From NCBI GenBank assembly GCA_036796175.1, contig DAIRDK010000002.1, positions 1 through 33,239 of the forward strand: 33,239 bases of DNA, in the 5' to 3' direction. Position numbers and translations under genes: made by a program. The notes under the pieces were generated by a model that saw only the letters and a program-made list of their open reading frames with translations, made no database searches and was not told the DNA's origin. The first letter of the stretch is position 1. Each line of letters begins with the position of its first letter. This document shows positions 4,116 to 27,168 of this stretch, in pieces. The stretch comes from Bacteroidales bacterium. Lineage in GTDB: Bacteria > Bacteroidota > Bacteroidia > Bacteroidales > FEN-979.

Positions 4116-4688
4116 ATGATGATCATGCCAGTTGTAGCATACGGACACCCTGTATTAAAGAAAGTCGCCGCGGAGATCACACCGGATTATCCCGATCTGC
4201 AGCAATTTGTCGCCGACATGTGGGAGACGATGTACGTTTCCGACGGCGTCGGCCTCGCCGCACCCCAGGTAAACCGCTCCATACGTCTTTTTGTGATTGA
4301 TACCTCCCCTTTTGCCGAACATTATCCGGAAGCCAGGGATTTCAAGCAGGTGTTCATCAATGCAAAGATTTACGAAGAAGAGGGGGAGGAATGGGCCTAT
4401 AACGAAGGCTGCCTCAGTTTTCCCGGCCTCCGGGAAGACATCATGCGCAAACCCGTCATCCGCATCCGCTATGTGGATGAGAACTTCAGGCCTCACGACA
4501 TGCGTTTCAGCGGGATCATCGCACGCGTGGTCCAGCACGAATACGACCATATCGAAGGCATCACCATGGCCGACCGGATCAGCCCGCTGAAGAAGATGCT
4601 CCTGAAAGGCCGCCTGGCCGACATCTCCAAAGGGAATGTCGAAGTCAGCTATAAGATGATCTTTCCGGCGATGAAGAGGAGGAAGTGA
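4116..4688 (+). CDS. def: Peptide deformylase
   Basis: Contains the three Def motifs GVGLAAPQ, EGCLSFPG and QHEYDHIEG. 190 aa, though the start could be 4116, 4119 or 4125. Confidence 0.95.
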   Translation: MMIMPVVAYGHPVLKKVAAEITPDYPDLQQFVADMWETMYVSDGVGLAAPQVNRSIRLFVIDTSPFAEHYPEARDFKQVFINAKIYEEEGEEWAYNEGCLSFPGLREDIMRKPVIRIRYVDENFRPHDMRFSGIIARVVQHEYDHIEGITMADRISPLKKMLLKGRLADISKGNVEVSYKMIFPAMKRRK

Positions 4689-4730
4689 AGAGTGAAGCCT
4701 GCCTGCCGACAGGCAGGAGTGAAAAGTGAA
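4685..4730. repeat. Copy A of a palindrome-containing element: AGTGAAG x2, then CCTGCCTG-CCGA-CAGGCAGG, then AGTGAAA x2
   Basis: Perfect 8-bp stem with a 4-nt loop at 4698-4717. The core 4685-4726 (42 nt) is identical to the reverse complement of 15331-15372. The def stop TGA (4686-4688) lies inside the first repeat unit. Confidence 0.9.
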
Positions 4731-4762
4731 TTTACACAGAGAAACTTAAAGAACAGAATCCA

Positions 4763-5125
4763 ATGACATCCAGCATGAAAAAAGAAATCACGGCGGCTAA
4801 AGACCTGATTGCTTTCTGCGGGCTTTACTGCGGAGCCTGCCGGTCGTACCTCAACGGGAAATGCCCCGGATGCAGGGACAATGCAAAGGCCACGTGGTGC
4901 AAAGTCAGAACCTGCTGCCTGGAGAACAACCTGCTGAGCTGTGCCGACTGCAAGACCATCGAACTGCATGCTTGCAAAAAACACAACAATTTTATCTCCA
5001 AGGTATTCGGGGTGATCTTCAATTCGGACAGGGCTGCCTGCATCGGTCGGATCAAAGAGCTCGGATATGATGGCTATGCGCTGGAAATGGCATCAGATCG
5101 TAAGCAAACCATTCCCAGAAGGTAA
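4763..5125 (+). CDS. Cys-rich DUF3795-like protein
   Basis: 120 aa. The pattern CGLYCGACRSYLNGKCPGCR...WCKVRTCC...CADC matches my recollection of DUF3795. The start may be at MKKEIT (4775). Confidence 0.6.
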   Translation: MTSSMKKEITAAKDLIAFCGLYCGACRSYLNGKCPGCRDNAKATWCKVRTCCLENNLLSCADCKTIELHACKKHNNFISKVFGVIFNSDRAACIGRIKELGYDGYALEMASDRKQTIPRR

Positions 5126-5156
5126 GTGATCTTCTTCTAAAGTAAACAATCCATTT

Positions 5157-5696
5157 ATGCAAAAAGTTCTTGCCTGTTTAGTGCTCCTGGCGGCATTCAC
5201 TGCCTGCCAGCCTTCGCGTGAAAAATTGAACGAACGGATCACTGCGACGGAAAAGAGACTCTTTTCTCCTAATTCGTCGGGATTTTCGAAGGCCTCAGCC
5301 GACAGCCTGATTGCGGATTACGAATTGTTCGTCAGGGAATATCCTAAGGATACGCTGGCCCCGGTTTATTTATTTAAGGGAGCCGGGATTTCCATGAACA
5401 TGGGTGAAGGAGGGAAAGCCATCGAACTTTACGACCGGATGATCAGCACCTATCCGGATCACCCGAAAGCTGCCCTGGCGCTGTTTTTCAAGGGATATGT
5501 ACAGGAGAACCTGCTGAAGGACCTCGATAAAGCGAAAGAGACCTATCTCCTGTTCATTGAAAAATATCCGAATAACGAGTTCACCGACGATGCCCAGGCA
5601 TCGATCAACAACCTGGGGAAGTCCCCTGAGCAGATGATCCGTGAGTTCGAGGCGAGAAAGAAGGCCGACAGCGCAGCGATTACCGGAAAAAAATAG
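5157..5696 (+). CDS. TPR-repeat lipoprotein
   Basis: Has a lipoprotein signal MQKVLACLVLLAAFTAC. TPR-like helices are present (AIELYDRMISTYPDHPKAALALFFKGYV, AKETYLLFIEKYPNNEFTDDA). Confidence 0.6.
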   Translation: MQKVLACLVLLAAFTACQPSREKLNERITATEKRLFSPNSSGFSKASADSLIADYELFVREYPKDTLAPVYLFKGAGISMNMGEGGKAIELYDRMISTYPDHPKAALALFFKGYVQENLLKDLDKAKETYLLFIEKYPNNEFTDDAQASINNLGKSPEQMIREFEARKKADSAAITGKK

Positions 5697-5699
5697 GGA

Positions 5700-6491: not shown

Positions 6492-6492
6492 A

Positions 6493-6555
6493 GTTATCGG
6501 TTATCGGTTATCGGTTATGACTACATGCTGATTGCCACATGCTACATGCCACCTG
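6493..6555. repeat. Contiguous period-7 tandem arrays: GTTATCG x4 (6493-6520), then CTACATG/CTGATTG/CCACATG/CTACATG/CCACCTG (6521-6555)
   Basis: Read directly from the sequence. The arrays fill most of the gap between the folP stop (6576) and the cdaA start (6491). Confidence 0.9.
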
Positions 6556-6575
6556 CAAAAATATCACAAATAATT

Positions 6576-7400: not shown

Positions 7401-7404
7401 GGGG

Positions 7405-7412
7405 CAAAGGTA
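7405..7412 (-). promoter_or_regulatory. Candidate -7 box TACCTTTG for folP
   Basis: The reverse complement of caaaggta matches TAnnTTTG. It lies only 4 nt from ATG 7400, which would imply a near-leaderless mRNA. Confidence 0.3.
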
Positions 7413-7418
7413 GGAAAA

Positions 7419-7493
7419 GGTGACAAGGTGACAAGGTGACAAGGTGACAAGGTAACAGGGCGAACATCGAACAACGAACATCGAATATCGAAC
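7419..7493. repeat. Tandem arrays GGTGACAA x4 plus GGTAACAG (7419-7458), then CGAACAT/CGAACAA/CGAACAT/CGAATAT/CGAAC (7461-7493)
   Basis: Read directly from the sequence. The arrays sit in the divergent folP / ferritin-like intergenic region. Confidence 0.95.
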
Positions 7494-7503
7494 CAAAAGT
7501 TGT

Positions 7504-7511
7504 TATCTTTG
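7504..7511 (+). promoter_or_regulatory. Candidate -7 box TATCTTTG for the ferritin-like gene
   Basis: Exact TAnnTTTG match 19 nt upstream of ATG 7531. Confidence 0.45.
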
Positions 7512-7530
7512 ACCATCAAACGTCACAACC

Positions 7531-8049
7531 ATGGGACAGAAAGCCGTAAACATCCTGCAGATCGACGTGCAGGAGCTGATCAGCAAGCTGAATGCCGCCC
7601 TCGCGGAAGAGTGGCTGGCTTATTATCAGTACTGGATCGGAGCCAGACTGATGGAAGGTCCGATGCGCAGCGAAATCGAACCGGAACTGTTGCTTCATGC
7701 GAACCAGGAACTGGGCCATGCGGTGCTTGTGGTCTCCCGGATCATCCAGCTCGGAGGGACGCCGGTCCTTCATCCTTCCGAATGGTTCAACCTGAGCCGG
7801 TGTGATTACGATGCCCCTGCAGATCCGTATGTCGAAGTGATCCTCGAGCAGAACCTCAAAGGCGAACGCTGTGCGATCCAGCGTTACCAGGAGATCGCCG
7901 ATTTCACGAACGGCAAGGACTTCACCACGCACCAGATGGTCACAACGATCCTGAATGAGGAATTGGAACACGAGCAGGATATCGAGGACTGGATCAATGA
8001 TATCCACCGGATGAAGGAAGACATGATGAAATTAAGAATTAATAATTAA
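7531..8049 (+). CDS. Ferritin-like / Dps-like (bacterioferritin superfamily) protein
   Basis: 172 aa, predicted four-helix bundle. It has di-iron-type ligand spacing (LAEEW...ELGH...EE..H: EEWLAYYQY, NQELGHAVL, LNEELEHEQD). Confidence 0.7.
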   Translation: MGQKAVNILQIDVQELISKLNAALAEEWLAYYQYWIGARLMEGPMRSEIEPELLLHANQELGHAVLVVSRIIQLGGTPVLHPSEWFNLSRCDYDAPADPYVEVILEQNLKGERCAIQRYQEIADFTNGKDFTTHQMVTTILNEELEHEQDIEDWINDIHRMKEDMMKLRINN

Positions 8050-8083
8050 TGATTACTAGTTAATAATTTATAATACAATAGTA

Positions 8084-8632: not shown

Positions 8633-9731
8633 AACACTGTTCAGGATACTCGTAGGGCTTGTTTTCATCTTTTCCGGTTTTGTGAAAGGAGTCGATCCGC
8701 TTGGCACCGTTTACAGGATGGATGATTATTTCATCGCTTTCGGGACTACCTGGGCTATGCCGCTGTCGCTCTACCTTTCCATCTTTTTGTGCACGCTGGA
8801 ATTTGTCATTGGAATCAGCCTTCTTTTTAACCTGCAGATCAAACGAACCGCCTGGATCCTCCTCCCGGTCATGACCTTTTTTACTATACTGACCTTCTTC
8901 GATGCGCTGTACAACCTGGTTCCCGATTGCGGCTGCTTTGGCGATGCGCTTAAACTGACCAACGTCCAGACATTCATCAAGAACCTTATCCTGATGGGTT
9001 TCGTGATCCCGATCTTCATCTGGAGAAAGCAATACAAACCCGTTGTCCCGGCCTGGACCCGGAACCTGGTCCTGACCGTGTTCGCGGTGATGTTTGCCGC
9101 CATGGCGGTTCATGCCTACCGCTATCTTCCGCTTATCGATTTCATGGATTGGAAGATCGGCAACCAAGTGAACAAAACGGCAGACAAACCGGTGAAATTC
9201 TATGTTACTTTCAAGAATACCAGGACGGGTGAAACACAGGAGTACCTTGCCCCCAACTATCCCTGGAATGACAGCGTATGGATGTCGCAATGGGTGTTCG
9301 TTTCCCAGCGGCCGGCTGACGAAAGTGCCGTGAACACGATGACCCTCCGGATTGAAGATGAAACCGGGGCCGATCTTACTTCTTCCATCCTGGGCATTCC
9401 GGATTATCATTTCATCGCCGTTTCATATGATCTGACCAAGGCCGACACGGGCGCCCTGATGAAACTGGAATCCCTGTACCGGCTTGCTTCCGCGGATGGG
9501 TATTCGTTCATCGCGCTGACCAGCACGCTGCCTGAGCAGGTGAATGTGATCCGGGAGCAGAACAGGCTGGACATGCCTTTTTACTTTGCCGACGACGTGA
9601 TCCTGAAAACCATGGTCCGCTCCAATCCCGGGCTGATCCTGCTGAACAACGGCGTGGTTGTGGCGAAATGGCCCTGGAGGGACCTGCCGCTGTATGATGA
9701 CCTGATCAGGAAATATGTAAAGGGCAGGTAG
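8619..9731 (+). CDS. DoxX-like membrane protein with C-terminal thioredoxin-fold-like region (BT_3928 type)
   Basis: 370 aa. The N-terminal half is multi-TM (LVGLVFIFSGFVKGVDPLG, CGCFGD) and the C-terminal half is soluble. It overlaps the end of the DUF1599 gene by 14 nt. Confidence 0.65.
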   Translation: MKVLRTLFRILVGLVFIFSGFVKGVDPLGTVYRMDDYFIAFGTTWAMPLSLYLSIFLCTLEFVIGISLLFNLQIKRTAWILLPVMTFFTILTFFDALYNLVPDCGCFGDALKLTNVQTFIKNLILMGFVIPIFIWRKQYKPVVPAWTRNLVLTVFAVMFAAMAVHAYRYLPLIDFMDWKIGNQVNKTADKPVKFYVTFKNTRTGETQEYLAPNYPWNDSVWMSQWVFVSQRPADESAVNTMTLRIEDETGADLTSSILGIPDYHFIAVSYDLTKADTGALMKLESLYRLASADGYSFIALTSTLPEQVNVIREQNRLDMPFYFADDVILKTMVRSNPGLILLNNGVVVAKWPWRDLPLYDDLIRKYVKGR

Positions 9732-9757
9732 CAGATTGCAGGTGGCGGGGATAAGGT

Positions 9758-9811
9758 CGGACAACGAACAACGAACAACGAACATCGAACGCCGAACATC
9801 GAACAACGATC
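9758..9811. repeat. Heptamer array CGGACAA/CGAACAA x2/CGAACAT/CGAACGC/CGAACAT/CGAACAA/CGATC, ending directly at the ATG at 9812
   Basis: Read directly from the sequence. It belongs to the same unit family as 7461-7493. Confidence 0.95.
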
Positions 9812-10891
9812 ATGGTTCGTTTCATTTTAAAACGTCTTAGATACGGCTTCTGGGTACTCCTCGGGGTGGTTTGCCTGATCTTCTTCCTGTTCAACATTCT
9901 TCCAGGAGATCCGGCGCGGATGATGCTGGGACAGCGGGCGGATGTGGCTTCGGTGGAAGCGATCAACAAGGATCTGGGACGCGATAAACCGTTGCCCGTG
10001 CAGTTCCTGAATTACTTGAATGACCTCTCGCCGCTGTCGGTGCATGTCAATAATGACCCGGCGAGTTACTGGTACCTCGACCCGTCGAAGTACCGTCACC
10101 AATTAAGGCTGGTCAGACTGGGCAGTCATACGGTGGTGATCAAGGAACCCTACCTGCGGCGGTCCTACCAGTCTAAACGAGACGTGTCGGCGATCCTGGC
10201 CGAAGCCTTCGTCAATACCTCGATCCTGGCTGTTGTTTCGATGGCCTTTGCGATGATCCTCGGTATCGGGATCGGCATTCTCTGCGCCCTCAGACCAAAT
10301 ACCGTGTTCGACCGCACTGCCCTGGTGCTCTCGGTGTTCGGTATGTCCCTTCCTTCGTTCTTTGCCGCCATCCTCATCGCGTGGATCTTCGCGTTCCTGC
10401 TGGGCGGGCACACCGGGCTGAACATGACCGGCAGTCTCTTTTCGGTTGACGACCTGGGGCGGGGCGAGTACCTCGACCTGAAGAACCTCATCCTGCCTGC
10501 GCTTACGCTCGGCATCCGACCGCTGGCCATCGTGACCGAACTGACCCGTAACTCGATGCTGGAAGTTCTTTCCCAGGATTATATCCGCACCGCCAGGGCC
10601 AAAGGGCTGAAGAACCATACCATCCTCCTCAAACATGCGCTAAAGAATGCACTGAACCCGGTCGTCACCGCTGTTTCAGGATGGCTGGCCTCCCTGCTCG
10701 CCGGGGCAGTCTTCGTGGAATTCGTCTTCGACTGGAAAGGGATCGGAGTGGTGATCGTCAACGCACTCAACAAATACGATTTCCCGGTGATCATGGGAGC
10801 GGTCCTCTTCATCGCCGTGATCCTGATCGTGATCAACATCCTTGTAGATATCACCTATGGACTCCTCGACCCCAGGGTCAGGGTGCAATAA
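9812..10891 (+). CDS. ABC transporter permease, peptide/nickel (DppB/OppB-like) family
   Basis: 359 aa. The N-terminus FILKRLRYGFWVLLGVVCLIFFLFNILPGDPA and the EAA-loop region LSQDYIRTARAKGLK are typical of the family. Confidence 0.85.
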   Translation: MVRFILKRLRYGFWVLLGVVCLIFFLFNILPGDPARMMLGQRADVASVEAINKDLGRDKPLPVQFLNYLNDLSPLSVHVNNDPASYWYLDPSKYRHQLRLVRLGSHTVVIKEPYLRRSYQSKRDVSAILAEAFVNTSILAVVSMAFAMILGIGIGILCALRPNTVFDRTALVLSVFGMSLPSFFAAILIAWIFAFLLGGHTGLNMTGSLFSVDDLGRGEYLDLKNLILPALTLGIRPLAIVTELTRNSMLEVLSQDYIRTARAKGLKNHTILLKHALKNALNPVVTAVSGWLASLLAGAVFVEFVFDWKGIGVVIVNALNKYDFPVIMGAVLFIAVILIVINILVDITYGLLDPRVRVQ

Positions 10892-10904
10892 AAAAAGAAG
10901 AATT

Positions 10905-11678
10905 ATGAGAAACAAGATCGTTGCAGGAAACTGGAAAATGAACAAGACCTTCCGGGAAGCGGAAGATCTCCTGAATGAATTATATGAAGGGTTGGAAACC
11001 CTCGACCTGGGTTCGGTGCAGGTGATCCTGTGCGTACCTTTCCCTTACCTTGAGCTGGCCACCGATTTTGCCGAAGACACGCGGTTCATGGTGGGTTCGC
11101 AAAATGTAAGCGACCGCGACTGGGGCGCTTTTACGGGTGAAGTCTCGGCGCCTATGCTGAAATCTCTGGGTGTCGACTTCACCGTTATCGGCCACAGCGA
11201 GCGGAGGAAATATTTTAACGAGTCGGCGGAATTCCTTAAGGGAAAGACCGAGACTGCGCTGCGCCATGGGCTGGGCCCGATCTTTTGCTGCGGGGAGGTC
11301 CTGCCCGAACGCGAAGCCGGGAAGCATTTCGAGATCGTGAAGACTCAACTCGTGGAATCCCTGTTCCACCTGGCGCCTGAAGATTTCCGCCAGGTGATCA
11401 TTGCCTATGAGCCCGTGTGGGCGATCGGCACAGGCGTCAATGCCACCCCCGGTCAGGCGCAGGAGATGCACGCCGCCATCCGTTCCTGGATCCGGGAAAC
11501 CTATGGCGACAAAACCGCGGACGAAACGATCATCCTGTACGGTGGGAGCTGCAACGCCTCCAATGCCGGGGAACTCTTCGCGCAACCTGATGTGGACGGC
11601 GGTTTGATCGGCGGAGCCTCACTAAAGGGGGAGGAGTTTCTGCAGATCATTAAAGCTGCCGGAGCAAAGGAGGGGTAA
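10905..11678 (+). CDS. tpiA: Triosephosphate isomerase
   Basis: Starts at ATG 10905 (MRNKIVAGNWKMN). Motifs are GHSERR and AYEPVWAIGTG. Confidence 0.95.
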   Translation: MRNKIVAGNWKMNKTFREAEDLLNELYEGLETLDLGSVQVILCVPFPYLELATDFAEDTRFMVGSQNVSDRDWGAFTGEVSAPMLKSLGVDFTVIGHSERRKYFNESAEFLKGKTETALRHGLGPIFCCGEVLPEREAGKHFEIVKTQLVESLFHLAPEDFRQVIIAYEPVWAIGTGVNATPGQAQEMHAAIRSWIRETYGDKTADETIILYGGSCNASNAGELFAQPDVDGGLIGGASLKGEEFLQIIKAAGAKEG

Positions 11679-11679
11679 A

Positions 11680-11725
11680 CGTAGTACGTAGTACGTAATA
11701 CGTAGTACGTACCACGTCCCACGAA
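11680..11725. repeat. Heptamer array CGTAGTA x2/CGTAATA/CGTAGTA/CGTACCA/CGTCCCA/CGAAC..
   Basis: Read directly from the sequence. It occupies the entire convergent gap between the tpiA stop (11678) and the DUF1003 gene stop (11726). Confidence 0.95.
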
Positions 11726-12415: not shown

Positions 12416-12419
12416 GGCT

Positions 12420-15253: not shown

Positions 15254-15330
15254 TGGCCCGATTAATAAGTACACCCCCTAAAGATACAGTAATTTTTAAT
15301 GAATCGCAGCACCTCAATATGCTATCATAA

Positions 15331-15380
15331 CTTTTCACTCCTGCCTGTCGGCAGGCAGGCTTCACTCTTCACTCTTCATT
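15331..15380. repeat. Copy B (inverted) of the palindrome-containing AGTGAAR element
   Basis: The sequence cttttcact-CCTGCCTG-TCGG-CAGGCAGG-cttcactcttcactcttcatt has its palindrome at 15340-15359. 15331-15372 is the exact reverse complement of 4685-4726. The stop codon of the 390-aa gene (15362-15364) lies inside a repeat unit. Confidence 0.9.
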
Positions 15381-16534
15381 CTAATAAGCGTTTCTTTTTC
15401 CAGTTCACACCACCTCGCCAGGGTGTCGTTCGCCGATTTCACGGTCCAGTCGCGGGTCCACTCATAGGGCCAGGCTTGTCTGATCACTTCGGGCAGGTCC
15501 TTTTCTTCAATGAAGCCAGGGATCAGGGTAGCGGTCTGGTACTGATCCACCGGCCCGGGGACGATCACGGCGTCGGCCAGGTCTTTCAGGCGGATGGAAC
15601 CGTAGCCCATGGTGTAGTAGGTGAGGGTGTCGGTCCGGTTGCCGAGGGGCGATTCCGTTGTGATGAAGCCGTAGGTTCTTTGTTTCTGCGGAAGGGATGC
15701 CGTAACCGAGTCGATCACGCCGTTAAATGGCCGCATAAATGTAACGCCCAGTTCCGGCTTCCTGGAGAGCGGAGCATAGAGGTAGATAGTCGCAGTCCGG
15801 GCCGGGTATTTGAGGTAGCATGCGGTCCCTTCGCGGTCGTTCTCGAACCGGATGAACTTCCCGTCGATGACGATCGGGTGCCGGAATTTGGAGAAGGCGT
15901 GGTGGAGCCCGCAATAGACAAGCGCCTTCTGCCCCCGGTCGAGGGCCTCGGTCTCGATCACCTGCAACCAGGTCTTGTTGTGCTCAAAGTCCCAGAAAGC
16001 CCTTTTCTTGTCGTGGTTATTCCAGTCTTCGGGTGTTTGAATGGCCTCGTAGTTGATATCGGGCATCACGCCGATGATGCGGAACGGTGGTTCGCCGGCT
16101 TTACGGTGGCGGTTCACCTCCCAGGCGGCGCGGAAGTTGTCGGCATACTCCTGCCAGGCCCAGTCCCACTCCGACCGTCTCAGCATGTCGTACACCAGTT
16201 TTTCGTTGTAATCCGGGGCGGTCAGGAGGGAATCGGAGAGGCGGGTGTCTGAATAGTTGGTGAACTCGTAAAACAGGACATGTACGCCTTGTTCCTGTAA
16301 GACAGGGATCAGGCTGCTTACGAACTCCACCTGTTGTTTGATGCGGTGACTCTCGCCCAGGAAGAGGACGTCGTATTGCCTGTACAGGTTGGCCATCAGT
16401 TCGGGGATGGGTTGGAGGGACAGGGACCGGGAAGTGTTGGTTCGCCGGCCGGGGGTTGAGGAGGCCAGGAGGAGGGGGAGAAGCAGCAGGAGGAGTATAT
16501 GGGTCATGGGTTTGTATGTTAAACTACCCTTCAT
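15362..16534 (-). CDS. Exported hypothetical protein, possibly Tiki/ChaN/erythromycin-esterase superfamily
   Basis: 390 aa with signal-like MTHILLLLLLPLLLASS (alternative start 16507). YDVLFLGESH and a later CGLHH (GxxH) resemble the ChaN/Tiki motifs. The family call is from memory only. Confidence 0.5.
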   Translation of the reverse strand: MKGSLTYKPMTHILLLLLLPLLLASSTPGRRTNTSRSLSLQPIPELMANLYRQYDVLFLGESHRIKQQVEFVSSLIPVLQEQGVHVLFYEFTNYSDTRLSDSLLTAPDYNEKLVYDMLRRSEWDWAWQEYADNFRAAWEVNRHRKAGEPPFRIIGVMPDINYEAIQTPEDWNNHDKKRAFWDFEHNKTWLQVIETEALDRGQKALVYCGLHHAFSKFRHPIVIDGKFIRFENDREGTACYLKYPARTATIYLYAPLSRKPELGVTFMRPFNGVIDSVTASLPQKQRTYGFITTESPLGNRTDTLTYYTMGYGSIRLKDLADAVIVPGPVDQYQTATLIPGFIEEKDLPEVIRQAWPYEWTRDWTVKSANDTLARWCELEKETLIRMKSEE

Positions 16535-19007: not shown

Positions 19008-19064
19008 ATTCCATGAGTTGTTCTTTTTCTTCTGATATTTTCTTCATTCTGGTCCTACTTGTTG

Positions 19065-20015
19065 TCAGGATTTCCAAACCAATGCAACTTTCCCTTTTGT
19101 ATGCATGGCTTCGATGTAGCGCAAGGCTTCGGGGATCTCTTTATATGACCAGGTCTTCTCAATGTGAACTTTAATTTTCCCGTCCCGGATCCATGTTGCC
19201 AATGTTTCCAGATCCTTCGTGTTGGCTTCTGCGGTAAACTGGGCCAATGGAAATTTGCTGAACGGTTTTTTCAACAGTACCGAGATCATGTGTCCCAGGG
19301 TAGTGAAGCCGACCATGACGCCTCGCTGTCCCATCCGTTTATAATCTTTATGGAAAAGGTTGCCGTTCGTATCCACGATCAGGTCGTATTTCCCCTGGTG
19401 CAGGTGAATGTTTTCTTTATCGTAGGCGATGACCTGGTCAGCGCCCAATGTTCTGACAAAGTCCGCGTTTCTGTCCGAGCAGACCGCTGTGACTTTTGCG
19501 CCAAATGCCTTTGCGATCTGAACGGCAAAATGGCCAACGCCGCCCGAGGAGCCGTTGATCAGGACCGATTCGCCTTCCCTGAGTTGTCCGTGCGTGGTGA
19601 GTGCCTGTAAAGCGGTGACACCGGCAATGGGGACGCAGGCCATTTCAGGAAAGCCGGCACCGTCAGGCATCAGCGCACAAACAGAAGCCGGGGCACACAC
19701 GTATTGGGCAAAAGCGCCGCCCTGCAAGTTCTCTCCGAATACCCGGTCGCCTGCCTTGAACGGACCGGCGGTATTTCCAACGGCTTCGACGATCCCCGAA
19801 AAATCAGCTCCCGGGATGCTGCCTTTGGGCCTGAACAGCCCGAAAGAGAATCGGGCAAAGAACGGCTTTCCCCGCAGAATGTGCCAGTCGGCGGGATTGG
19901 CTGAATTCGCCATGACTCTGACCAGGATCTGATCCTCCTTCACGACCGGTTTCTCCACCTCCTGCAGCCGGAGAACCTCCGGTCCGCCGTATCTTGTACG
20001 TGTATATGCTTTCAT
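19065..20015 (-). CDS. NAD(P)H-dependent quinone oxidoreductase / zinc-type alcohol dehydrogenase-like (MDR superfamily)
   Basis: Starts at ATG 20015 (MKAYTRTRYGGPEVL). Has the Rossmann motif INGSSGGVGHFAVQIAKAFGAKVTAV. Confidence 0.85.
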   Translation of the reverse strand: MKAYTRTRYGGPEVLRLQEVEKPVVKEDQILVRVMANSANPADWHILRGKPFFARFSFGLFRPKGSIPGADFSGIVEAVGNTAGPFKAGDRVFGENLQGGAFAQYVCAPASVCALMPDGAGFPEMACVPIAGVTALQALTTHGQLREGESVLINGSSGGVGHFAVQIAKAFGAKVTAVCSDRNADFVRTLGADQVIAYDKENIHLHQGKYDLIVDTNGNLFHKDYKRMGQRGVMVGFTTLGHMISVLLKKPFSKFPLAQFTAEANTKDLETLATWIRDGKIKVHIEKTWSYKEIPEALRYIEAMHTKGKVALVWKS

Positions 20016-20204
20016 GTTGTTGTCTCTGGTATAAATCATTTCTGGTAAACGACTTGGCTGCTAGACGCTTCGCCGCAAAACACAGTAGGGGATTTCCTTT
20101 GTAGATCGTTTCATTATCCTTATAATTTATAGGTTTTGTGAATGATGGTGCTCGGAGACCTGCCCCTATTGTGGTTAGCGGCTCGTTGTGCATGCGAGCA
20201 GGTA

Positions 20205-20768
20205 CTATTTCTTTTTTACTAAAATAACAGACCTGTTAAGAAAGGATTTCGGTCTATCTATTATCTCAAATCCAATTCCTTTTACTTTATTTAGCATGTT
20301 TTCAAAAGATTTTCCTGAAACATGAAACATGGGTTCTACAATTAGAATTCTTCCATTCATTTGTAAAATTGAATATAACTCCTGAAATAGTTTATCATGA
20401 TTTGGCACTTCGTGAATCATATAAAATGCAAGAATAAAATCGATTTTTTCTGTAATCCCGATATTTTCCTCCTGGCACTGATGAAAAATAATGTTGGATT
20501 CTAATGCAGTTCCTTTAATTTTTTGTCTTAACTTTTCAAGCATTCCCTTCTGCAAATCAGCTGCAATGACTTTTCCTGTGTTATTAAGCATTCTTGCAAT
20601 TTCTATTGTAAAATAGCCTGGACCACACCCTAAATCAAGTACCGTCATTCCTTCTTTAATATGCGGTTTTAACACGTTATTCGGATTTTGTATTATCCTC
20701 CTGATTTTATTGTCTAATCCAGCCGCATATTCTACAGGACAAATTCTTTTGTTTTTATCTTTATTCAT
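20205..20768 (-). CDS. Class I SAM-dependent methyltransferase (small, stand-alone)
   Basis: 187 aa with motif I VLDLGCGPGYFT and a post-I acidic residue (AADL). The gene is conspicuously AT-rich with A/T-ending codons compared with its neighbours. Confidence 0.85.
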   Translation of the reverse strand: MNKDKNKRICPVEYAAGLDNKIRRIIQNPNNVLKPHIKEGMTVLDLGCGPGYFTIEIARMLNNTGKVIAADLQKGMLEKLRQKIKGTALESNIIFHQCQEENIGITEKIDFILAFYMIHEVPNHDKLFQELYSILQMNGRILIVEPMFHVSGKSFENMLNKVKGIGFEIIDRPKSFLNRSVILVKKK

Positions 20769-20896
20769 AATTTCTTATTTTAAGTGTCAATACGAAGTAT
20801 TGTCTTTTGCATGAGGTACAACGCTCGTATGACTCTTATATAAGTGTTTTCTGTCCCTGAACGATGTGATTGTCTAATGTTATTTGTCTAACACGG

Positions 20897-20918
20897 CCGG
20901 CAACTGAATGGTTGCCGG
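20897..20918. other. Stem-loop CCGGCAAC-tgaatg-GTTGCCGG
   Basis: Perfect 8-bp stem with a 6-nt loop. It is an isolated GC-rich hairpin inside AT-rich intergenic DNA and has no clear U-tract on either strand. Confidence 0.6.
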
Positions 20919-20982
20919 TTCAGGAGCACATCCAAATATAATAAATAATTAAATATTCTGACAATTGGGAATAAATTCTAAT

Positions 20983-21017
20983 TTTCACTTCTTACTCTTC
21001 ACTTTTCACTCTTCACT
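20983..21017. repeat. Heptamer array TTTCACT/TCTTACT/CTTCACT/TTTCACT/CTTCACT (reverse complement of AGTGAAR)
   Basis: Read directly from the sequence. It belongs to the same unit family that flanks the palindromes at 4685-4730 and 15331-15380. Confidence 0.9.
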
Positions 21018-21026
21018 ACCAGAATG

Positions 21027-21096
21027 CAACCCTTCCGGGGTTGACGTGGTTCCCCGTTCCCCATCGTGCTACCATAATTGAACCCCTCCGGGGTTC
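21027..21096. repeat. Two related stem-loops: CAACCC-ttccg-GGGTTG (21027-21043) and GAACCCC-tcc-GGGGTTC (21080-21096)
   Basis: Read directly from the sequence: 6-bp and 7-bp perfect stems sharing an AACCC/GGGTT core, 36 nt apart. Confidence 0.75.
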
Positions 21097-21116
21097 GCGC
21101 GCTGCCTCAACTTAAG

Positions 21117-21228
21117 CCACCTGCCACCTGCAATCCCATCATCCTGCTGTCCCGCCATCCCGCTATCCTGCCATCCCGTTATCTCGTCATCAGGCAATAG
21201 GCAATAGCAATAGGCAATAGGCGATAGG
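21117..21228. repeat. Back-to-back arrays: CCACCTG x2 (21117-21130), octamer GYYATCCY-like x8 (21130-21193), GGCAATA-like x5 (21193-21228)
   Basis: Read directly from the sequence. The octamer units are gcaatccc atcatcct gctgtccc gccatccc gctatcct gccatccc gttatctc gtcatcag. They are followed by ggcaata ggcaata gcaata ggcaata ggcgata. Confidence 0.9.
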
Positions 21229-21315
21229 TTTTCACCGGCGTCGTAATCCGTCTTTCGTAATTGAGAGATCCGCTTCAGGATCGAGGGAGATTTGAGTTTC
21301 ACCCTTTTTAGGATC

Positions 21316-21699
21316 TCAGAACACCGTTTCCCCCTCGATGAACCACGCGATGCCAAAGCTTTCAACGGCGCCCGATGCGGCCACCAGCAGGGCGATGACC
21401 ATCGCCATATAAGCCAGGCAGCCCAGGTACCCCGCGGCGGAAAAGGAATGAAATCCCTTCCTGAACCCACTTACTTTCAAAATCGTGACGGAGTAAGGAA
21501 AGTTGGCGTCGTTGCACACGTTGGTGATATTGTCCGTGGGGAACAGCACTACACACAACACAAAGAGCACGGCAATGGTGGAGATGATGAAGTCAACGGG
21601 ATCAGGACCTTTGTAAATGATCAGGTAAGTTACATCGAAATGGTTGATTTTGGGTCTGAGTAGGTATAAGTAATTACTTAGTTGTTGTGACCCTGTCAC
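21316..21699 (-). CDS. Hypothetical small membrane protein (start uncertain; possibly 5'-truncated)
   Basis: Has two hydrophobic segments (FIISTIAVLFVLCVVLF, LGCLAYMAMVIALLVAASGAV). The overlapping plus-strand ORF looks like an antisense shadow. The only in-frame start before TM1 is a GTG that lies inside the octamer array. Confidence 0.35.
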   Translation of the reverse strand: MTGSQQLSNYLYLLRPKINHFDVTYLIIYKGPDPVDFIISTIAVLFVLCVVLFPTDNITNVCNDANFPYSVTILKVSGFRKGFHSFSAAGYLGCLAYMAMVIALLVAASGAVESFGIAWFIEGETVF

Positions 21700-21732
21700 C
21701 CTGTGACCCTGTCACCCTGTTACCTTGTCACC
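21687..21732. repeat. Octamer array GTGACCCT/GTCACCCT/GTGACCCT/GTCACCCT/GTTACCTT/GTCACC
   Basis: Read directly from the sequence. It is the reverse-complement family of GTGACAGG/GTGACAAG (27092-27139, 7419-7458). Confidence 0.95.
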
Positions 21733-21741
21733 AAAAACCCC

Positions 21742-21749
21742 TACATTTG
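21742..21749 (+). promoter_or_regulatory. Candidate -7 box TACATTTG for prmA
   Basis: Exact TAnnTTTG match 31 nt upstream of ATG 21781. Confidence 0.45.
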
Positions 21750-21780
21750 TCCTGAACCACCACCTGAAGGGTCGAAAGTT

Positions 21781-22608: not shown

Positions 22609-25600
22609 CCCGGCGGAAGATGATCAGATATATCCTTGTCCTGCTGTTGCTCGTGCCCTGTTTTCGGGCCGGCGCGCAGCAGATGACGAAGTTTTCCGGC
22701 GACTCGACCAGGTTCATCGGGGAACTCAACCAGCTTTTCTCCACCCTGAGCGATGAAGACCGGAAGATCGTCGAACAGGAGATGGTCACGTTCGTCATGA
22801 ACTGGAACGCCGAAAAGTTCGACCCGTCAAAGAAACAATGGATCTATACGCTCACCGGCCAGATGCTGAAGAAGAAACTGCGTCCCTTCCCCGACATCTA
22901 TAATTACCTTCGCGCTCTCGATGCGTTCCTGGCTACCGGCCAGCCCGATCGCTCCTTCTACGACTGGTCCGGGATTCTTGGCAAACTCTGCGAATCGAAA
23001 AATGCCCGCAACCTGGTGTCGTTCATCGAGCAGACCCGAAGCCTCTTCGCGGGAAACATGCTCTACCAGAGCGCATCCACCACGTGGACGGCATCGTCCA
23101 AATCGTTTGCCTTTTCCTATGATACCGTTCCCGTGATCCTTTTCAATACCACTGACCTGGTCTGTTTTTCCAACCGCGACAGCCTGACAATCTACGATAC
23201 CCGGGGAAGGTATTACCCGCTCACCACGAAATGGTACGGGCAAGGGGGCAAGGTGGACTGGCGGCGTGCCGGGCTGGACCCGAACGTCGTCTTCGCCATG
23301 CTCGGAGATTACCAGGTGCAGATGAAATTCTCCAAATACACGGCCGACTCCGCCGGGTTCTATAACCGGAAATATTTCTCCTCTTCACTGCAGGGGCAGC
23401 TCATCGACAAGGTCCAGGCCGACATGGACGAGGAGAAGGCATCGTACCCGCGGTTCCATTCGTATGAAGGATTTCTCGGGATCCGGAATATCTTCAACAA
23501 CATCGATTTCTACGGCGGGTTTGCCATGGAAGGAGCGCGGGTCATGGGCTTCGGCGACAAGGACCGGGACGCGGTGCTCATCTTTCACAAGGACGACCGG
23601 GAATTTCTCACGGCCCGGTCCAAGCATTTCGTGATCCGCCCCGACCGCATCAACTCGGGACTCGCTTCGGTCTCCATCTATCATGACGAAGATTCGATCT
23701 ACCACTCGGGATTGCAGTTTAAGTACCTCGACGAGCAGAAAGAGCTCTCGATGACCAAGGATGAGCGCGTCGCGGTGATCAGTCCCTGGTTTGACTCCTA
23801 TCACGACATCGAGATCTACTGCGAAGCCCTCTTCTGGAAGACCAACCAGAATGTCATCTCCTTCGGCGTGGAACGCGGCCCGGGCACAGAGGGGAATGCG
23901 GTCTTCGAATCGGACAATTATTACTCGCTGGAACGTTATGAACGGCTCCAGGGCATCGACCTGTTCAACCCCCTGGATGTCATCAAACGTTATACCGACC
24001 GCAAAAAGACCAGGGAATTCACGCTCGATGAGATCTCCCGGTACATGGAAAAACCGCCCGACCAGGTGGAAGGGCTTCTGCTCCTGCTGAATGCCCGGGG
24101 ATTTCTCATCTATGACATGGATGACAAACGGGCCGTGGTCAAGGACAAGCTCGTACACTACGTGGATTCGAAGAATGACAAGACCGACTACGACATCATC
24201 AACATCAGCTCCTCCGTGGCGGGAGAAAACAACGCCGTGCTCAACCTCGAGAACTTCAACCTGAAGATCCTCGGCGTGAAGCGCATCCTGCTGAGCGATT
24301 CCCAGCAGGTGTTCGTCTATCCTGCAGCCGGCGAGGTGGTGATGCAGAAGGACCGTAACTTCTCTTTCTCCGGGAAGGTGGAGGCCGGGCTGTTCGACTT
24401 CTACGGGAAAGGATTCTCGTTTGATTACGGCAACTTCAGGCTGACGATGCCCTCCATCGACACGATGGAGTTCTATACCCGGAGTAATAAAAAGGATCCA
24501 AAGACGCAGGAGTACCAGATGGTGAAGGTGAGATCACAGCTGAACCACTTCTACGGGCAACTCCTGATCGACGCCCCCGATAACAAGTCGGGACGAAGGG
24601 TGCTGGACCAGTACCCCGTGTTTGTGAGCAGTGACACCGCCCGTGTCGACTGGGATAAAAACTACGTTTACAACGGCGTATATGATAAGGACCGCTTTTA
24701 TTTTGAAGTATTGCCGTTCACGCTGAGCAGCCTGGATAAGATGGTCCCCGATACCCTGCGGTTCGACGGCGTGCTGACCTCGGCTGGCATCTTCCCCGGC
24801 ATCCGGGAGAAACTGAAGGTCCGTCCCGATTACTCGCTCGGTTTTGAGAAGCAAACACCCCCGGACGGGCTTCCTGTCTATACGGGTAAAGGAACCTTTA
24901 TCGCGAAAGTCGACCTGAGCAACCAGGGATTGAAGGGGGAAGGCACGTTGAGATATCTCAATTCCACCTCGGTGGCTGACAACTTCATCTTTTTCCCCGA
25001 TTCCATGAAGGCTGTGGCACGTACGTTCACTACTGCCGAGCAGCTCGCCGCAGTGGAATACCCGTCAGTCGCCGGCGATTCGGTGGTTGAGTATTGGATG
25101 CCCTACCAGGACTCGATGTCGGTGACGACCATCAAAAAGGAACTGGCCATGTACAACAGCCAGTCGACCTTTGCGGGCACGCTGTCCCTGACTCCAGGCG
25201 GGATGATGGGCAACGGCACCATCAAGATCCGCGATGCCGAAATGGATTCCCGCGGATTCAACTTTAAGCAGCATACCTTCGATGCGCTGATCGCCAATTT
25301 CAGGATCAAATCGTATGACCTGGCCGCACTCTCGATATCGACCCGGAATTACCGGACCCACTTCGACTTCGAACTGAGGCGCGGTGAATTTAAATCCAAT
25401 GTCGGGATCTCGCGGATCGAGTTCCCGTTCAACCAGTATATCTGCTCGATGGACCGCTTTGACTGGATGCTCGACAACGAAGAGATCACCCTGATGAACG
25501 AAGCCTCTGGCCAGGCTTCAGCCGATACGGTCAGTATGGCCGGGCTGATCGATGTGGGATATACCGGTTCCGAGTTCATTTCGGTGAGGCCCGACCAGGA

Positions 25601-27092
25601 CTCGCTTCGCTTCTTCGCGTTGAAGGCCCGATATAACCTCAAAAGCAACGTGATCAATGCCGAAGAGGTGAAGATCATCAAGGTGGCGGATGCAGCCATC
25701 TTCCCCGATTCCGGGAAAGTGAGGATCATGAAGGACGCCCGCATGGAAGTTCTGCATAACGCCGGGATCATTGCCAATACCACGACCCGGTACCACAACT
25801 TTTACCAGGCAGATGTCGCCGTGGCTACCCGTCACAAGTATGATGCGAAAGGGTTCTACGATTACGTGGATATCACCGGCGACCGCCAGCAGATCTACTT
25901 CACGCGCATCGCAGTGGACACCTCGGGTACGACCTTTGCCAAAGCCAGTGTCAGCGATTCGGCCCGGTTCCGCCTGTGTCCGCAGATCGGGTTCGAAGGG
26001 GACATCCTGCTTGACGCCCCGGAGAAGTTACTCACATTCGACGGTGGCTACCGGCCCATTCCCGGCTGCGAGCCGTTGCAGCCCCAGTATGTACGCTTCA
26101 CCGCGCCGGTTGACCCACAGCATGTCCTGCTGCCGGTCGATCCCCAGCTGAAGAACACGGTCAGGGAGAACATCACGGCCGGCCTGATGATGTCGAACAC
26201 CCAGGGGAGGATCTATCCCATTTTCTTCGAGAAACGGAACAGCTTCAGCGATTCGGTCATGGTCCAGGCCTCCGGGTTGCTGGATTACCAGCAGGAATCG
26301 AACTCCTTCCGCATCACTCCCAAGGAGATCGCCGTGGCAGGCGGCGCCGAAAATACGTTGCAGCTGAGTTTGGATCAGTGCGTCCTGAGCGGAACAGGGA
26401 CGGTCAATGCCGGCATGAATCCCGGGAACCTGAAGATGGAGACCTGGGGGACGATCACTCATTACATCCTGCCCGATTCCACCACGATGAAGATCGCCAT
26501 CGCGCTGAACAACCCGTTCAATGACGAGGCCTTGCTGAAGTTCCGGCAGCAGCTGACGACGGTGAACCTGCCCGGCGTCAGCCTGCTGAACACCCCCTAT
26601 GCCAATGCTTTGGCCACCAAGGTGAACCGGAACGACCTGAACAACCTCCGGACCGAGATCGAGCAGTTCGGCCGGTTCAGGCGGTTCCCCGAAGAGATGA
26701 AACGCACGATCTTCTTGTCCGAAGTCACCCTGAGCTGGGACAGCACGGCCAAAGCCTGGGTCTCGCGGGGGCCGATCGGCATCGGCAGCCTCGGTGACGA
26801 GCTCATGCCGAGGTATGTGGAAGGCAAGGTCGAGTTTGTCAAGAAGCGGAACGGCGACGACTTCACCTTCTACCTGCAGCTCACCGATAACATCTGGTAC
26901 TTCTTCAATTATCGCAACAATATTTTCCAGAGCATATCCTCGAACCAGGAGTACAACGACCTCATCATCCAGGCCCAGCAGAACGGCGCCGAACAGAAGC
27001 GGGTGGATAAGGAGGCTAAGGGGTACAGGTATACGATATCGACGGAGAGGAAGAAGAGGGACTTTTTGAGGAAGTTCGAAACATTGGAATAG
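22605..27092 (+). CDS. Very large (about 1495 aa) exported protein of unknown function
   Basis: Single uninterrupted ORF. Its ATG at 22605 overlaps the prmA stop (ATGA 22605-22608) and gives MTRRKMIRYILVLLLLVPCFRAGAQQ, a signal peptide. I recognise no catalytic or domain motif, and there is no internal repetition. Confidence 0.85.
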   Translation: MTRRKMIRYILVLLLLVPCFRAGAQQMTKFSGDSTRFIGELNQLFSTLSDEDRKIVEQEMVTFVMNWNAEKFDPSKKQWIYTLTGQMLKKKLRPFPDIYNYLRALDAFLATGQPDRSFYDWSGILGKLCESKNARNLVSFIEQTRSLFAGNMLYQSASTTWTASSKSFAFSYDTVPVILFNTTDLVCFSNRDSLTIYDTRGRYYPLTTKWYGQGGKVDWRRAGLDPNVVFAMLGDYQVQMKFSKYTADSAGFYNRKYFSSSLQGQLIDKVQADMDEEKASYPRFHSYEGFLGIRNIFNNIDFYGGFAMEGARVMGFGDKDRDAVLIFHKDDREFLTARSKHFVIRPDRINSGLASVSIYHDEDSIYHSGLQFKYLDEQKELSMTKDERVAVISPWFDSYHDIEIYCEALFWKTNQNVISFGVERGPGTEGNAVFESDNYYSLERYERLQGIDLFNPLDVIKRYTDRKKTREFTLDEISRYMEKPPDQVEGLLLLLNARGFLIYDMDDKRAVVKDKLVHYVDSKNDKTDYDIINISSSVAGENNAVLNLENFNLKILGVKRILLSDSQQVFVYPAAGEVVMQKDRNFSFSGKVEAGLFDFYGKGFSFDYGNFRLTMPSIDTMEFYTRSNKKDPKTQEYQMVKVRSQLNHFYGQLLIDAPDNKSGRRVLDQYPVFVSSDTARVDWDKNYVYNGVYDKDRFYFEVLPFTLSSLDKMVPDTLRFDGVLTSAGIFPGIREKLKVRPDYSLGFEKQTPPDGLPVYTGKGTFIAKVDLSNQGLKGEGTLRYLNSTSVADNFIFFPDSMKAVARTFTTAEQLAAVEYPSVAGDSVVEYWMPYQDSMSVTTIKKELAMYNSQSTFAGTLSLTPGGMMGNGTIKIRDAEMDSRGFNFKQHTFDALIANFRIKSYDLAALSISTRNYRTHFDFELRRGEFKSNVGISRIEFPFNQYICSMDRFDWMLDNEEITLMNEASGQASADTVSMAGLIDVGYTGSEFISVRPDQDSLRFFALKARYNLKSNVINAEEVKIIKVADAAIFPDSGKVRIMKDARMEVLHNAGIIANTTTRYHNFYQADVAVATRHKYDAKGFYDYVDITGDRQQIYFTRIAVDTSGTTFAKASVSDSARFRLCPQIGFEGDILLDAPEKLLTFDGGYRPIPGCEPLQPQYVRFTAPVDPQHVLLPVDPQLKNTVRENITAGLMMSNTQGRIYPIFFEKRNSFSDSVMVQASGLLDYQQESNSFRITPKEIAVAGGAENTLQLSLDQCVLSGTGTVNAGMNPGNLKMETWGTITHYILPDSTTMKIAIALNNPFNDEALLKFRQQLTTVNLPGVSLLNTPYANALATKVNRNDLNNLRTEIEQFGRFRRFPEEMKRTIFLSEVTLSWDSTAKAWVSRGPIGIGSLGDELMPRYVEGKVEFVKKRNGDDFTFYLQLTDNIWYFFNYRNNIFQSISSNQEYNDLIIQAQQNGAEQKRVDKEAKGYRYTISTERKKRDFLRKFETLE

Positions 27093-27168
27093 TGACAGGG
27101 TGACAGGGTGACAGGGTGACAGGGTGACAGAGTGACGGGATAATTCGAGAAATCGTGAAATCGTGAAC
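27092..27168. repeat. Octamer array GTGACAGG x4/GTGACAGA/GTGACGGG (27092-27139), then TCGAGAAA/TCGTGAAA/TCGTGAAC (27145-27168)
   Basis: Read directly from the sequence. It starts at the last base of the TAG stop of the 1495-aa gene and ends 3 nt before the plsY ATG. Confidence 0.95.

Follow-up and report, generated by a model that had tools for sequence, protein, structure and literature searches.

The window analysed here is the whole stretch of 33,239 nucleotides of contig DAIRDK010000002.1 (assembly GCA_036796175.1, Bacteroidales), and our subject is the tandem arrays of short units that lie between its genes. The genes are housekeeping genes of Bacteroidota, among them those of FolP, CdaA, PlsY and DnaN, and T9SS sorting domains and a Fibrobacter-type domain are also encoded. 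Among species representatives, the best FolP match reaches 61% and comes from uncultured Bacteroidales metagenome-assembled genomes (MAGs). On a gene map taken from the gene calls attached to same-species contigs, intergenic DNA amounts to 2,080 bp, or 6.3% of the window. Arrays take up ~627 bp of it (~30%) and are present in 8 of the 11 gaps of at least 75 bp. No array lies inside a reading frame, and the arrays are essentially confined to non-coding DNA. By comparing assemblies and strains, we confirm that the arrays are real: they are tandem, copy-number-variable runs of 7- or 8-base units between genes.

The arrays and their variation between strains

Using Tandem Repeats Finder (TRF) with a score of at least 40 and at least three copies, we detected 11 arrays in the window, with periods of only 7, 8, 14 or 16. 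Under the same thresholds, no array appeared in 100 dinucleotide-preserving shuffles of the window or in 50 kb of E. coli K-12. The window tally comes to roughly twelve period-7 and five period-8 arrays (Table 1). An earlier note on this DNA, made from the letters alone, had described intergenic arrays with 7-8 nt periods, and TRF matches it at nearly all positions. Its list was incomplete, as the arrays at 8030-8074 (AATTAAT x6.4) and 9732-9756 (GCARGTR) were overlooked. It also took 4685-4730 and 15331-15380 for plain AGTGAAR arrays, which are instead two copies of a 44-nt hairpin element. The gene map places arrays in tandem, divergent and convergent gaps, as had been noted, so a single promoter or terminator role cannot explain them.

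Table 1. Arrays and hairpin elements of the window, with the corresponding TRF result
Position	Strand	Units	Context	TRF
4684-4727	+	44-nt element, copy 1: AGTGAAG x2, hairpin CCTGCCTG-CCGA-CAGGCAGG, then AGTGAAA-AGT
6493-6520	-	CGATAAC (= TAACCGA) x4, sense strand	abuts cdaA TTG start	6493-6518: GTTATCG x3.7, 100% matches
6521-6555	-	degenerate GCARGTR x5, sense strand	between TATTTTTG -7 box (6556-6563) and CGATAAC array	6521-6549: CTACATG-like x4.1, just 63% matches
7417-7460	-	TTGTCACC x4 + CTGTTACC (+ strand: GGTGACAA)	directly upstream of TTTTCC-TACCTTTG, folP -7 box	7417-7457: GGTGACAA x5.1, 96% matches
7461-7495	+	CGAACAW x4.7	upstream of Dps/ferritin -7 box TATCTTTG (7504-7511)	7461-7493: CGAACAT x4.7
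8030-8074	+	AT-rich AATTAAT x6.4	spans Dps stop codon and 34-nt gap before DUF1599	score 55
9732-9756	+	degenerate GCARGTR heptamer remnant	directly 3' of MauE/DoxX stop
9757-9811	+	CGAACAW x7.7	up to ABC permease ATG; intercistronic, gap without -7 box	9757-9813: CGAACAW, ~8 copies
11679-11725	.	ACGTAGT x6.5	fills entire convergent gap TIM / DUF1003	11675-11717: ACGTAGT x4.7
15330-15382	-	44-nt element, copy 2 at 15330-15373 (reverse complement), plus one further AGTGAAG unit		15360-15382
20982-21017	-	AGTGAAR x5	sense strand of both neighbouring genes	found
21116-21228	-	three abutting arrays; + strand: GCCACCT x2.3, CATCCCGC-like x7, AGGCAAT x5.4		found, with repeat search
21686-21732	+	alternating GTGACCCT/GTCACCCT x5.9, ends CTGTTACC-TTGTCACC	just upstream of prmA -7 box TACATTTG (21742-21749)	GTSACCCT x5.9
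27092-27139	+	GTGACAGG x6	begins at stop of 1495-aa gene	27092-27136: GTGACAGG x5.6, 97% matches
27145-27167	+	TCGTGAAA x2.9	ends 4 nt before plsY ATG	found

The same species, at >99.5% identity, is represented by an ENA metagenome contig of 45.7 kb, the NCBI MAG GCA_964599865.1 and several Logan assemblies. The same arrays are present in the ENA megahit contig, in the NCBI MAG contig and in several Logan assemblies from different samples. Since independent assemblies reproduce the arrays, an assembly artefact, a doubt raised in the earlier note, is ruled out.

Comparing the window strain with the ENA strain (contigs L001 and L087) revealed 63 substitutions over ~31.5 kb and just three true indels, all of which lie within arrays and consist of whole units. 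The ENA strain lacks 16 bp (2x8, GTGACAGG) at 27096, carries an additional 21 bp (3x7, GCARGTR) at 9727, and lacks 8 bp (1x8, GGTGACAA) at 7424. The 27092 array has four GTGACAGG copies in this other strain (L001). The 7417 array is one unit shorter in L087 and L091, and this 8-bp change is found in two independent assemblies, including a Logan assembly from another run. Arrays make up <2% of the compared sequence, yet they hold three of the three indels. That every indel is a whole-unit change inside an array shows slippage, in line with the slippage-prone spacers or lineage-specific mutational process suggested earlier.

Ends of short-read contigs fall within arrays at 27101 (Logan), 7445, 4698 and 7483. 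The arrays thus fragment short-read assemblies, whose contigs end within them, which matters for the quality of Bacteroidota MAGs.

Unit families, hairpins and promoters around the arrays

The unit families recur at unlinked gaps. Exact 12-mers are common to nine gap pairs against ~0.3 expected, and 14-mers to five gap pairs against ~0.02 expected, both expectations being simple arithmetic from the sequence length. The exact words shared between unlinked gaps range from 12- to 44-mers. Four families are each found in 2-3 of ~10 gaps. AGTGAAR occurs in gaps 4684, 15330 and 20982, and the array at 20982 shares a 13/14-mer with both copies of the hairpin element. The GTGACAGG/GGTGACAA family occurs in gaps 7417, 21686 and 27092, where the 18-mer GGTGACAAGGTAACAGGG of 21686-21732 reappears as its reverse complement in 7417-7460. 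CGAACAW occurs in gaps 7461 and 9757, with the 18-mer CGAACAACGAACATCGAA common to both. GCARGTR occurs in gaps 6521, 9732 and 21116; TTGCAGGTGGC of 6521-6555 is also present in gaps 9732 and 20769, and GATTGCAGGTGGC of 21116-21228 is also present in gap 9732. The recurrence of families at unlinked loci in both orientations, as the earlier note had described it, is borne out by these exact shared words.

An exact 44-mer is common to 4684-4727 and 15330-15373. This element has a stem of 8 bp, and its hairpin appears in the centroid fold. Each copy locates at a stop codon: the TGA of the deformylase gene (def) lies within the first unit of one copy, and the TGA of a 381-aa gene lies within a unit of the other. 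In def, the first AGTGAAG unit coincides with the native Lys-stop (AAG TGA), and we take the stop to be at its native position, given the conservation of the Def C-terminus among relatives. With two copies and an internal hairpin, the element partly resembles the dispersed palindromes, namely repetitive extragenic palindromic elements (REP), bacterial interspersed mosaic elements (BIME) and miniature inverted-repeat transposable elements (MITE), while the arrays do not. DNA retrieved from other species contained no further copy of the element.

In the Bacteroidales MAG CSSed10_131, we notice a terminator-like hairpin, GCCACCTGCCTG-AATG-CAGGCAGGTGGC (L019:4221-4260), in which the stem of the 44-nt element is joined to the GCARGTR-array word GCAGGTGGC. 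This hairpin hints that some heptamer families may derive from hairpin stems. Between the GCAGGTG and AGTGAAR arrays, at 21016-21106, a 38-nt unit with the GC-rich hairpins AACCCTTCCGGGGTT and GAACCCCTCCGGGGTTC is present in two copies, which start 53 nt apart. Another palindrome lies ~4.5 kb past the window end in the same species, where a 49-bp insertion with the perfect hairpin TTGGGGCGACTCGCCGAGTCGCCCCAA (L003:7715-7766) separates a DUF302 gene from a 1215-aa BNR/T9SS (type IX secretion system) gene. One Logan assembly has this insertion and two others lack it, so that a terminator-like palindrome shows a presence/absence polymorphism.

Folding revealed real hairpins only in the palindromic array 11679-11725 and the 44-nt element. 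The leader and intercistronic arrays fold no better than shuffles, with z ~0 (9757-9811: z -0.1). The ACGTAGT units contain the palindrome TACGTA, and their array forms a long hairpin on both strands, with a minimum free energy of -19.7 / -23.4 kcal/mol and z -3.9 / -3.6. The 21686-21732 array, in which GTGAC and GTCAC alternate, is self-complementary and forms a moderate hairpin (z -3.5). The earlier statement that most arrays are non-palindromic therefore holds for most of them, which fold like shuffles, and fails for 11679-11725 and 21686-21732. A terminator role for the arrays was rejected, as terminator-like sites in the window are not above shuffles. Only 28989-29011 qualifies as a canonical terminator hairpin, which agrees with the single one reported before. 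At gathering thresholds, Rfam gave nothing in the window.

TAnnTTTG is the -7 promoter motif of Bacteroidota, as in Bacteroides and Flavobacterium promoters. The window contains 14 matches, and 12 of them are intergenic, which indicates that the motif marks promoters here. Arrays lie upstream of the -7 boxes of folP, dps, prmA and the methyltransferase gene; they also occupy two promoter-less intercistronic gaps, 9732-9811 and 27092-27167. The TAACCGA array, in forward orientation on the sense strand, stops 1 nt short of the cdaA TTG start codon, and the array pair 6493-6555 lies in what we infer to be the cdaA leader (5' untranslated region), between the -7 box and the start codon. At folP, a TTG from the second-last TTGTCACC unit stands exactly 19 nt from the -7 box, and the periodicity of the array means that gain or loss of units leaves this TTG-to--7 geometry intact. 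No array was found between -33 and -7 elements in the window, which speaks against the tuning of promoter spacing once considered. A sigma-70 scan was uninformative: it yielded 16 hits per half-window, ~1.2-1.8 standard deviations above the shuffle means, with a tool that does not cover Bacteroidota promoters.

We notice that the folP -7 box (TACCTTTG or a close variant; window 7401-7412) is separated from the start codon by only 3-6 nt, most often 4. The same spacing occurs in every relative examined (L093, L094, L096 and L427-L431). As the box stands so near the start codon, the folP mRNA is probably leaderless or near-leaderless.

The base composition of the arrays differs with position. 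In two separate sets, start-proximal arrays contain 11% G and 37-42% A, and stop-proximal arrays contain 23-27% G and 8-12% C. Three tandem gaps contain a pair of arrays, and in each the stop-side member has G>C (GTGACAGG, GCARGTR). The start-side member is A/C-rich in two of these gaps (CGAACAW, CGATAAC); in the remaining gap it is TCGTGAAA, which is A-rich but with G>C.

Orthologous gaps, other genomes and known repeat classes

Relatives at 68-83% FolP identity and 79% PlsY identity show a conserved gene order; the contigs of three relatives contribute gap lengths only. The folP-cdaA gap, 84 nt in the window, is repeat-free and only 13 nt in L427, 25 nt in L096 and 37 nt in L093. The gap between the MauE gene and the permease measures 80 nt in the window versus 18 repeat-free nt in L094, and the gap before plsY measures 79 nt in the window versus 9 nt without an array in L432. 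Over 20 kb of L432 and 14 kb of L094, no 7/8-nt arrays were found. These array-free gaps indicate that the arrays are dispensable and that their abundance is lineage-specific. L432 and L094 represent related species with the same gene order and come from ENA sample ERZ27282986, as does the window species; the contigs of these array-poor species are k141_677321 and k141_372416.

Three arrays keep their unit, site and orientation at 76-78% FolP identity. At folP, TTGTCACC/TTGCCACC lies upstream of TTTTTC-TACCTTTG in L431, the array is degenerate in L428, and CTTGGTCC is found in L429; the TTGTCACC units adjoin TTTTYC-TACCTTTG in the window, L431 and L429. The cdaA start is abutted by the CGATAAC family in L428 and by TAACTGA x3 + TAACCGA x2 in L431. 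The permease start is abutted by CGAACAT x5 in L428. AGTGAAR also occurs in L096, a 69%-identity relative, where it occupies the DUF1599-to-dps gap and thus a different gap from those of the window.

To place the window within the phylum, we used 1.42 Mb of unbiased Bacteroidota loci centred on folP, in which TRF (at least three copies) detected 40 arrays of period 7, 17 of period 8, and 3, 6 and 5 of periods 6, 9 and 10. Fifty-two of the 56 non-overlapping arrays are intergenic, three lie inside genes and the remaining one is at the edge of a contig. Among genomes, the density of arrays is overdispersed (p=3e-4), with the window at the rich end (11 arrays vs 2.9 expected at the phylum rate). 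Flavobacterium loci L051 and L048 carry ACTTCCA or AACCTAC arrays. No purine-strand bias was found in these loci (15 v 14).

In viral contigs of IMG/VR, we counted exact three-unit patterns, together with one composition-matched scramble per family. The contig stretches number at least 120 for AGTGAAR, at least 119 for TAACYGA, 37 for CGAACAW and 8 for GTGACAGG. The scrambles are frequent as well, so heptamer arrays of any sequence are far commoner than chance. A general sense-strand rule was rejected, since AGTGAAR is 41:11 in favour of sense in phage contigs but GTGACAGG is 12 sense to 24 antisense; of 130 viral TAACYGA cases, 95 face a gene end. In metagenomes, GTGACAGG x3 occurs in at least 120 stretches with a GC content of 41-71%. 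An exact cluster look-up named one of ten such matches, as Saprospiraceae, and one further was placed in Gemmataceae by homology. The latter contig (L234, Ga0105049_10007391) carries a GTGACAGG array of at least 6 units, and its SecA is ~72% identical to that of Gemmataceae (Planctomycetota), which places the octamer outside Bacteroidota as well.

The two AGTGAAR-bearing contigs that were checked are Bacteroidota phage-like and carry many other heptamer arrays. Protein searches place L111 and L119 among Bacteroidota phages, and megablast found nothing matching the array-dense L111 among plasmids and phages. We notice that L111, L156 and L164 (IMG/VR) are small contigs that resemble Bacteroidota phages or plasmids and encode a DUF6291 replication-type protein. 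Within 6-10 kb they show 10-20 different heptamer arrays (18-30 TRF rows), TCATTAT x21 and CTTCACT x23 among them. Some of these arrays have 21-nt super-periods and could act as iterons.

The earlier note had found no described element class for the arrays. They belong, however, to an already described class, that of long simple sequence repeats, cyanobacterial short tandemly repeated repetitive (STRR) sequences and TAACTGA heptamers, of which the window is a new, array-rich member. The STRR heptamers of heterocystous cyanobacteria were reportedly described by Mazel et al. in 1990, and the STRR1-3 units are CCCCAGT, TTGGTCA and CAACAGT. The window shares with them a few families of tandem heptamers that are scattered, in either orientation, across many intergenic sites. 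It differs in its Bacteroidales host, in having no unit equal to these three, and in the presence of octamers. Three tandemly repeated heptanucleotides are also described in Calothrix PCC 7601 (PMC4692102).

As summarised in two later papers, the survey of Mrazek, Guo and Shah (2007) covered long simple sequence repeats with units of 5-11 nt, found heptanucleotides commonest and the phylogenetic distribution sporadic, and suggested an origin by slippage connected with the polymerase footprint (PMC4679880, PMC4692102). The likeness, as far as these summaries go, comprises short head-to-tail units, a predominance of heptamers, intergenic location, sporadic lineages and the proposed slippage; in the window we find head-to-tail units beyond chance, non-coding location with heptamer predominance, and whole-unit changes. 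In these summaries, to which PMC4060949 also belongs, the repeats are richest in Burkholderia, cyanobacteria, actinobacteria and Xanthomonas, whereas the host here belongs to Bacteroidales. In addition, octamers form a strong second class in the window, and several families abut within single gaps.

MacGregor (2015) reported heptamer repeats with the unit TAACTGA from Beggiatoaceae, Cyanobacteria and five Bacteroidetes, often just upstream of starts (PMC4679880). In the Bacteroidetes, further heptamer repeats share the gaps with them. The gaps of relatives are shorter and repeat-free, and contigs end within repeats; S1, cold-shock or Csr proteins were proposed as readers, and CspB binds one heptamer per protein (PMC4679880). 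The cdaA array has the placement of these repeats, being intergenic, forward and a few nt before a start. Its unit, TAACCGA, is one base off, and true TAACTGA x3 stands at the orthologous site in L431. TAACTGA proper is absent from the window, where most arrays belong to other families (AGTGAAR, GTGACAGG, CGAACAW, GCARGTR) and many are not start-adjacent. Rehm et al. (2015) reported GGGAATC and GGGGA(T/C)T heptamers in Xanthomonas and Nostoc, and the Xanthomonas arrays stay between the same genes in related species while length and sequence vary (PMC4692102). Those units are G-tracts able to form quadruplexes, whereas the window units lack tracts of three or more G except at GTGACAGGG junctions.

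Contingency-locus repeats of host-adapted pathogens have slippage-driven copy-number polymorphism in common with the window arrays. They are, however, units of 1-5 nt (occasionally 7) in the frames or promoter spacers of surface-antigen genes, where they switch expression. The window arrays have units of 7-8 nt, stand beside housekeeping genes, and are found neither in frame nor between the -35/-33 and -10/-7 elements. Anatomy also excludes clustered regularly interspaced short palindromic repeats (CRISPR), as the units are 7-8 nt and directly abutting, compared with repeats of ~23-47 nt with unique spacers, and an identity of the arrays with REP/BIME was rejected on the same ground; both exclusions had already been made in the earlier note. 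An oriC or iteron cluster was rejected as well, since the arrays are scattered over 23 kb, no DnaA-box cluster is present (2 one-mismatch hits vs 6 expected), and there is no GC-skew switch. Heptamer arrays have been known since ~1990, and what this locus offers is slippage, family recurrence, orthologous persistence and array-free sisters together. Array-rich and array-poor sister species offer a direct route for seeking the determinant, be it a replication/repair variant or a binding protein.

Origin and possible roles of the arrays

We favour, with a probability of roughly 0.55, the idea that these are slippage arrays anchored on short constrained gene-boundary sequences, subject to a filter of local composition and structure, and for the most part dispensable. 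Replication slippage would generate loops of 7-8 nt. We assume that such loops are poorly repaired, extrapolating from Mrazek and Huang, who note that mismatch repair deals very efficiently with 1-3 bp loops and less so with longer ones (PMC4060949). [quoted passage not shown] The gene-proximal copy would act as a constrained signal and keep re-seeding the same unit, and this re-seeding may be the reason that three arrays retain their unit in diverged relatives. The def AGTGAAG unit, identical to the native AAG-TGA end, fits such anchoring. Arrays would persist only where the local signal is compatible with their strand composition and unstructured state, being A-rich and G-poor before starts and G>C, often with TGA, after stops. 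Most copies would be dispensable spacer DNA or RNA. A few may have been co-opted, such as the palindromic array as a hairpin in the convergent gap and the array that supplies TTG at -33 spacing.

Several observations weigh against anchored slippage. Exact 12- to 44-mers at unlinked gaps are unpredicted by local slippage alone. Moreover, GGTGACAAGGTAACAGGG and CGAACAACGAACATCGAA span junctions between variant units, and such words suggest copying between loci over independent seeding. In the three persistent arrays, 22 of 22 unit positions are kept despite the divergence of the relatives. The four-fold degenerate sites of folP are 41% identical between these species versus 33% expected at random; with these sites near saturation, a purely neutral array should have drifted. 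Single-copy seeds are only weakly recognisable in the array-free relatives. The composition rule is partly confounded by gene calls based on open reading frames (ORFs), as a stop-containing array on the sense strand ends an ORF. In viral contigs, the families exceed their scrambles (AGTGAAR at least 120 v 24; CGAACAW 37 v 18; GTGACAGG 8 v 1), which, with a single scramble each, hints at a sequence preference for some families. Nor does this reading account for the long shared words, the family preference or a period of 7-8 rather than 5-6 nt.

Alternatively, the arrays could be multivalent binding platforms, in which each 7-8 nt unit is a site for a domain that binds single-stranded nucleic acid, for example of an S1/cold-shock OB-fold (oligonucleotide-binding) or RNA recognition motif (RRM) protein, on the mRNA leader or intercistronic RNA, tuning translation initiation, coupling or RNA stability in a phylum that is not known to use Shine-Dalgarno pairing. 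We regard this as possible though unlikely. In its favour are the unit, position and orientation kept at three orthologous sites where synonymous sites are near saturation, and the arrays within 0-5 nt of the cdaA, permease and plsY starts, which are unstructured; start-proximal arrays in general are A-rich and G-poor. The preference for some families over scrambles points the same way, and the cdaA array belongs to the TAACTGA family, for which MacGregor proposed such a role (PMC4679880). However, at least 10 different unit families in 33 kb argue against a single reader protein, and several arrays, those upstream of -7 boxes and in the convergent gap, probably lie outside the mRNA of the gene concerned. 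Close relatives do without arrays, copy number varies within the population, and orientation with respect to genes is inconsistent when larger samples are taken (GTGACAGG 12:24; TAACYGA 95/130 facing the gene end; purine strand 15 v 14). A bolder proposal, to which we give somewhat less credence, is that the limited unit repertoire (AGTGAAR, TAACYGA, GTGACAGG/GGTGACAA, CGAACAW and others) is a read-out code and not slippage debris. The units stay at the same gene boundaries although synonymous sites are near saturation, are G-rich behind stops and A/C-rich ahead of starts, and are shared between Bacteroidota chromosomes and phages and in some cases with other phyla. If so, they would be bound one per domain by abundant single-strand-binding proteins of the S1, cold-shock or RRM type; binding would set translation re-initiation and transcript fate without Shine-Dalgarno pairing, and copy number would serve as a fast evolutionary dial.

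The shared words raise the question of whether the arrays form a selfish repeat population that spreads by copy-and-paste or templated synthesis from a lineage-wide unit pool. Candidate routes would be a unit-adding enzyme, the mobility of a small element such as the 44-nt hairpin, or exchange between arrays through ectopic template switching or gene conversion. The identical 44-mer at two loci, each at a stop codon, the junction-spanning 18-mers of unlinked gaps and the AGTGAAR array in a different gap of the 69%-identity relative L096 would all be explained in this way. The patchy presence of arrays among relatives, the families in Bacteroidota phage contigs with many heptamer arrays, and the contig breaks inside arrays, expected if long array k-mers recur genome-wide, fit as well. 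Nevertheless, we consider it improbable. No transposase, reverse transcriptase or integrase is encoded in the window, and no target-site duplications or terminal inverted repeats surround the arrays. The indels are in-place gains and losses of units without new insertions, and orthologous persistence fits in-place maintenance. Variants of the GGTAACAG type recur independently in unrelated genomes (23 occurrences of such transition variants in metagenome loci), so the shared junction words may be convergent. Least probable, in our view, is a role at the DNA level, either as contingency loci that switch or tune promoters or as arrays of operator or nucleoid-protein sites. Copy-number polymorphism does occur in the divergent promoter gap of folP and dps, and at both folP and prmA a TTGTCACC array of the same orientation immediately precedes the -7 box, with TTG at 19-nt spacing for folP. 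The GTGAC/GTCAC units that alternate in 21686-21732 presumably resemble CRP/FNR-type operator half-sites. Such a role is opposed by the lack of any array between -33 and -7 or in frame, by a periodicity that preserves core promoter geometry, by the many arrays in operon-internal gaps without a promoter, and by neighbours that are housekeeping and not surface or antigen genes.

Two further features of the window stand apart from these readings. At 1-1146, a minus-strand TonB-dependent receptor gene is cut by the window start, and the plus-strand ORF 106-933 (275 aa), which has no family match, is probably a shadow ORF. A low-GC island at 20000-21000 (34% vs ~55%) contains a class-I S-adenosylmethionine (SAM) methyltransferase gene at 20205-20768 and adjoins the 547-bp gap with five arrays, and this island may have been acquired horizontally.

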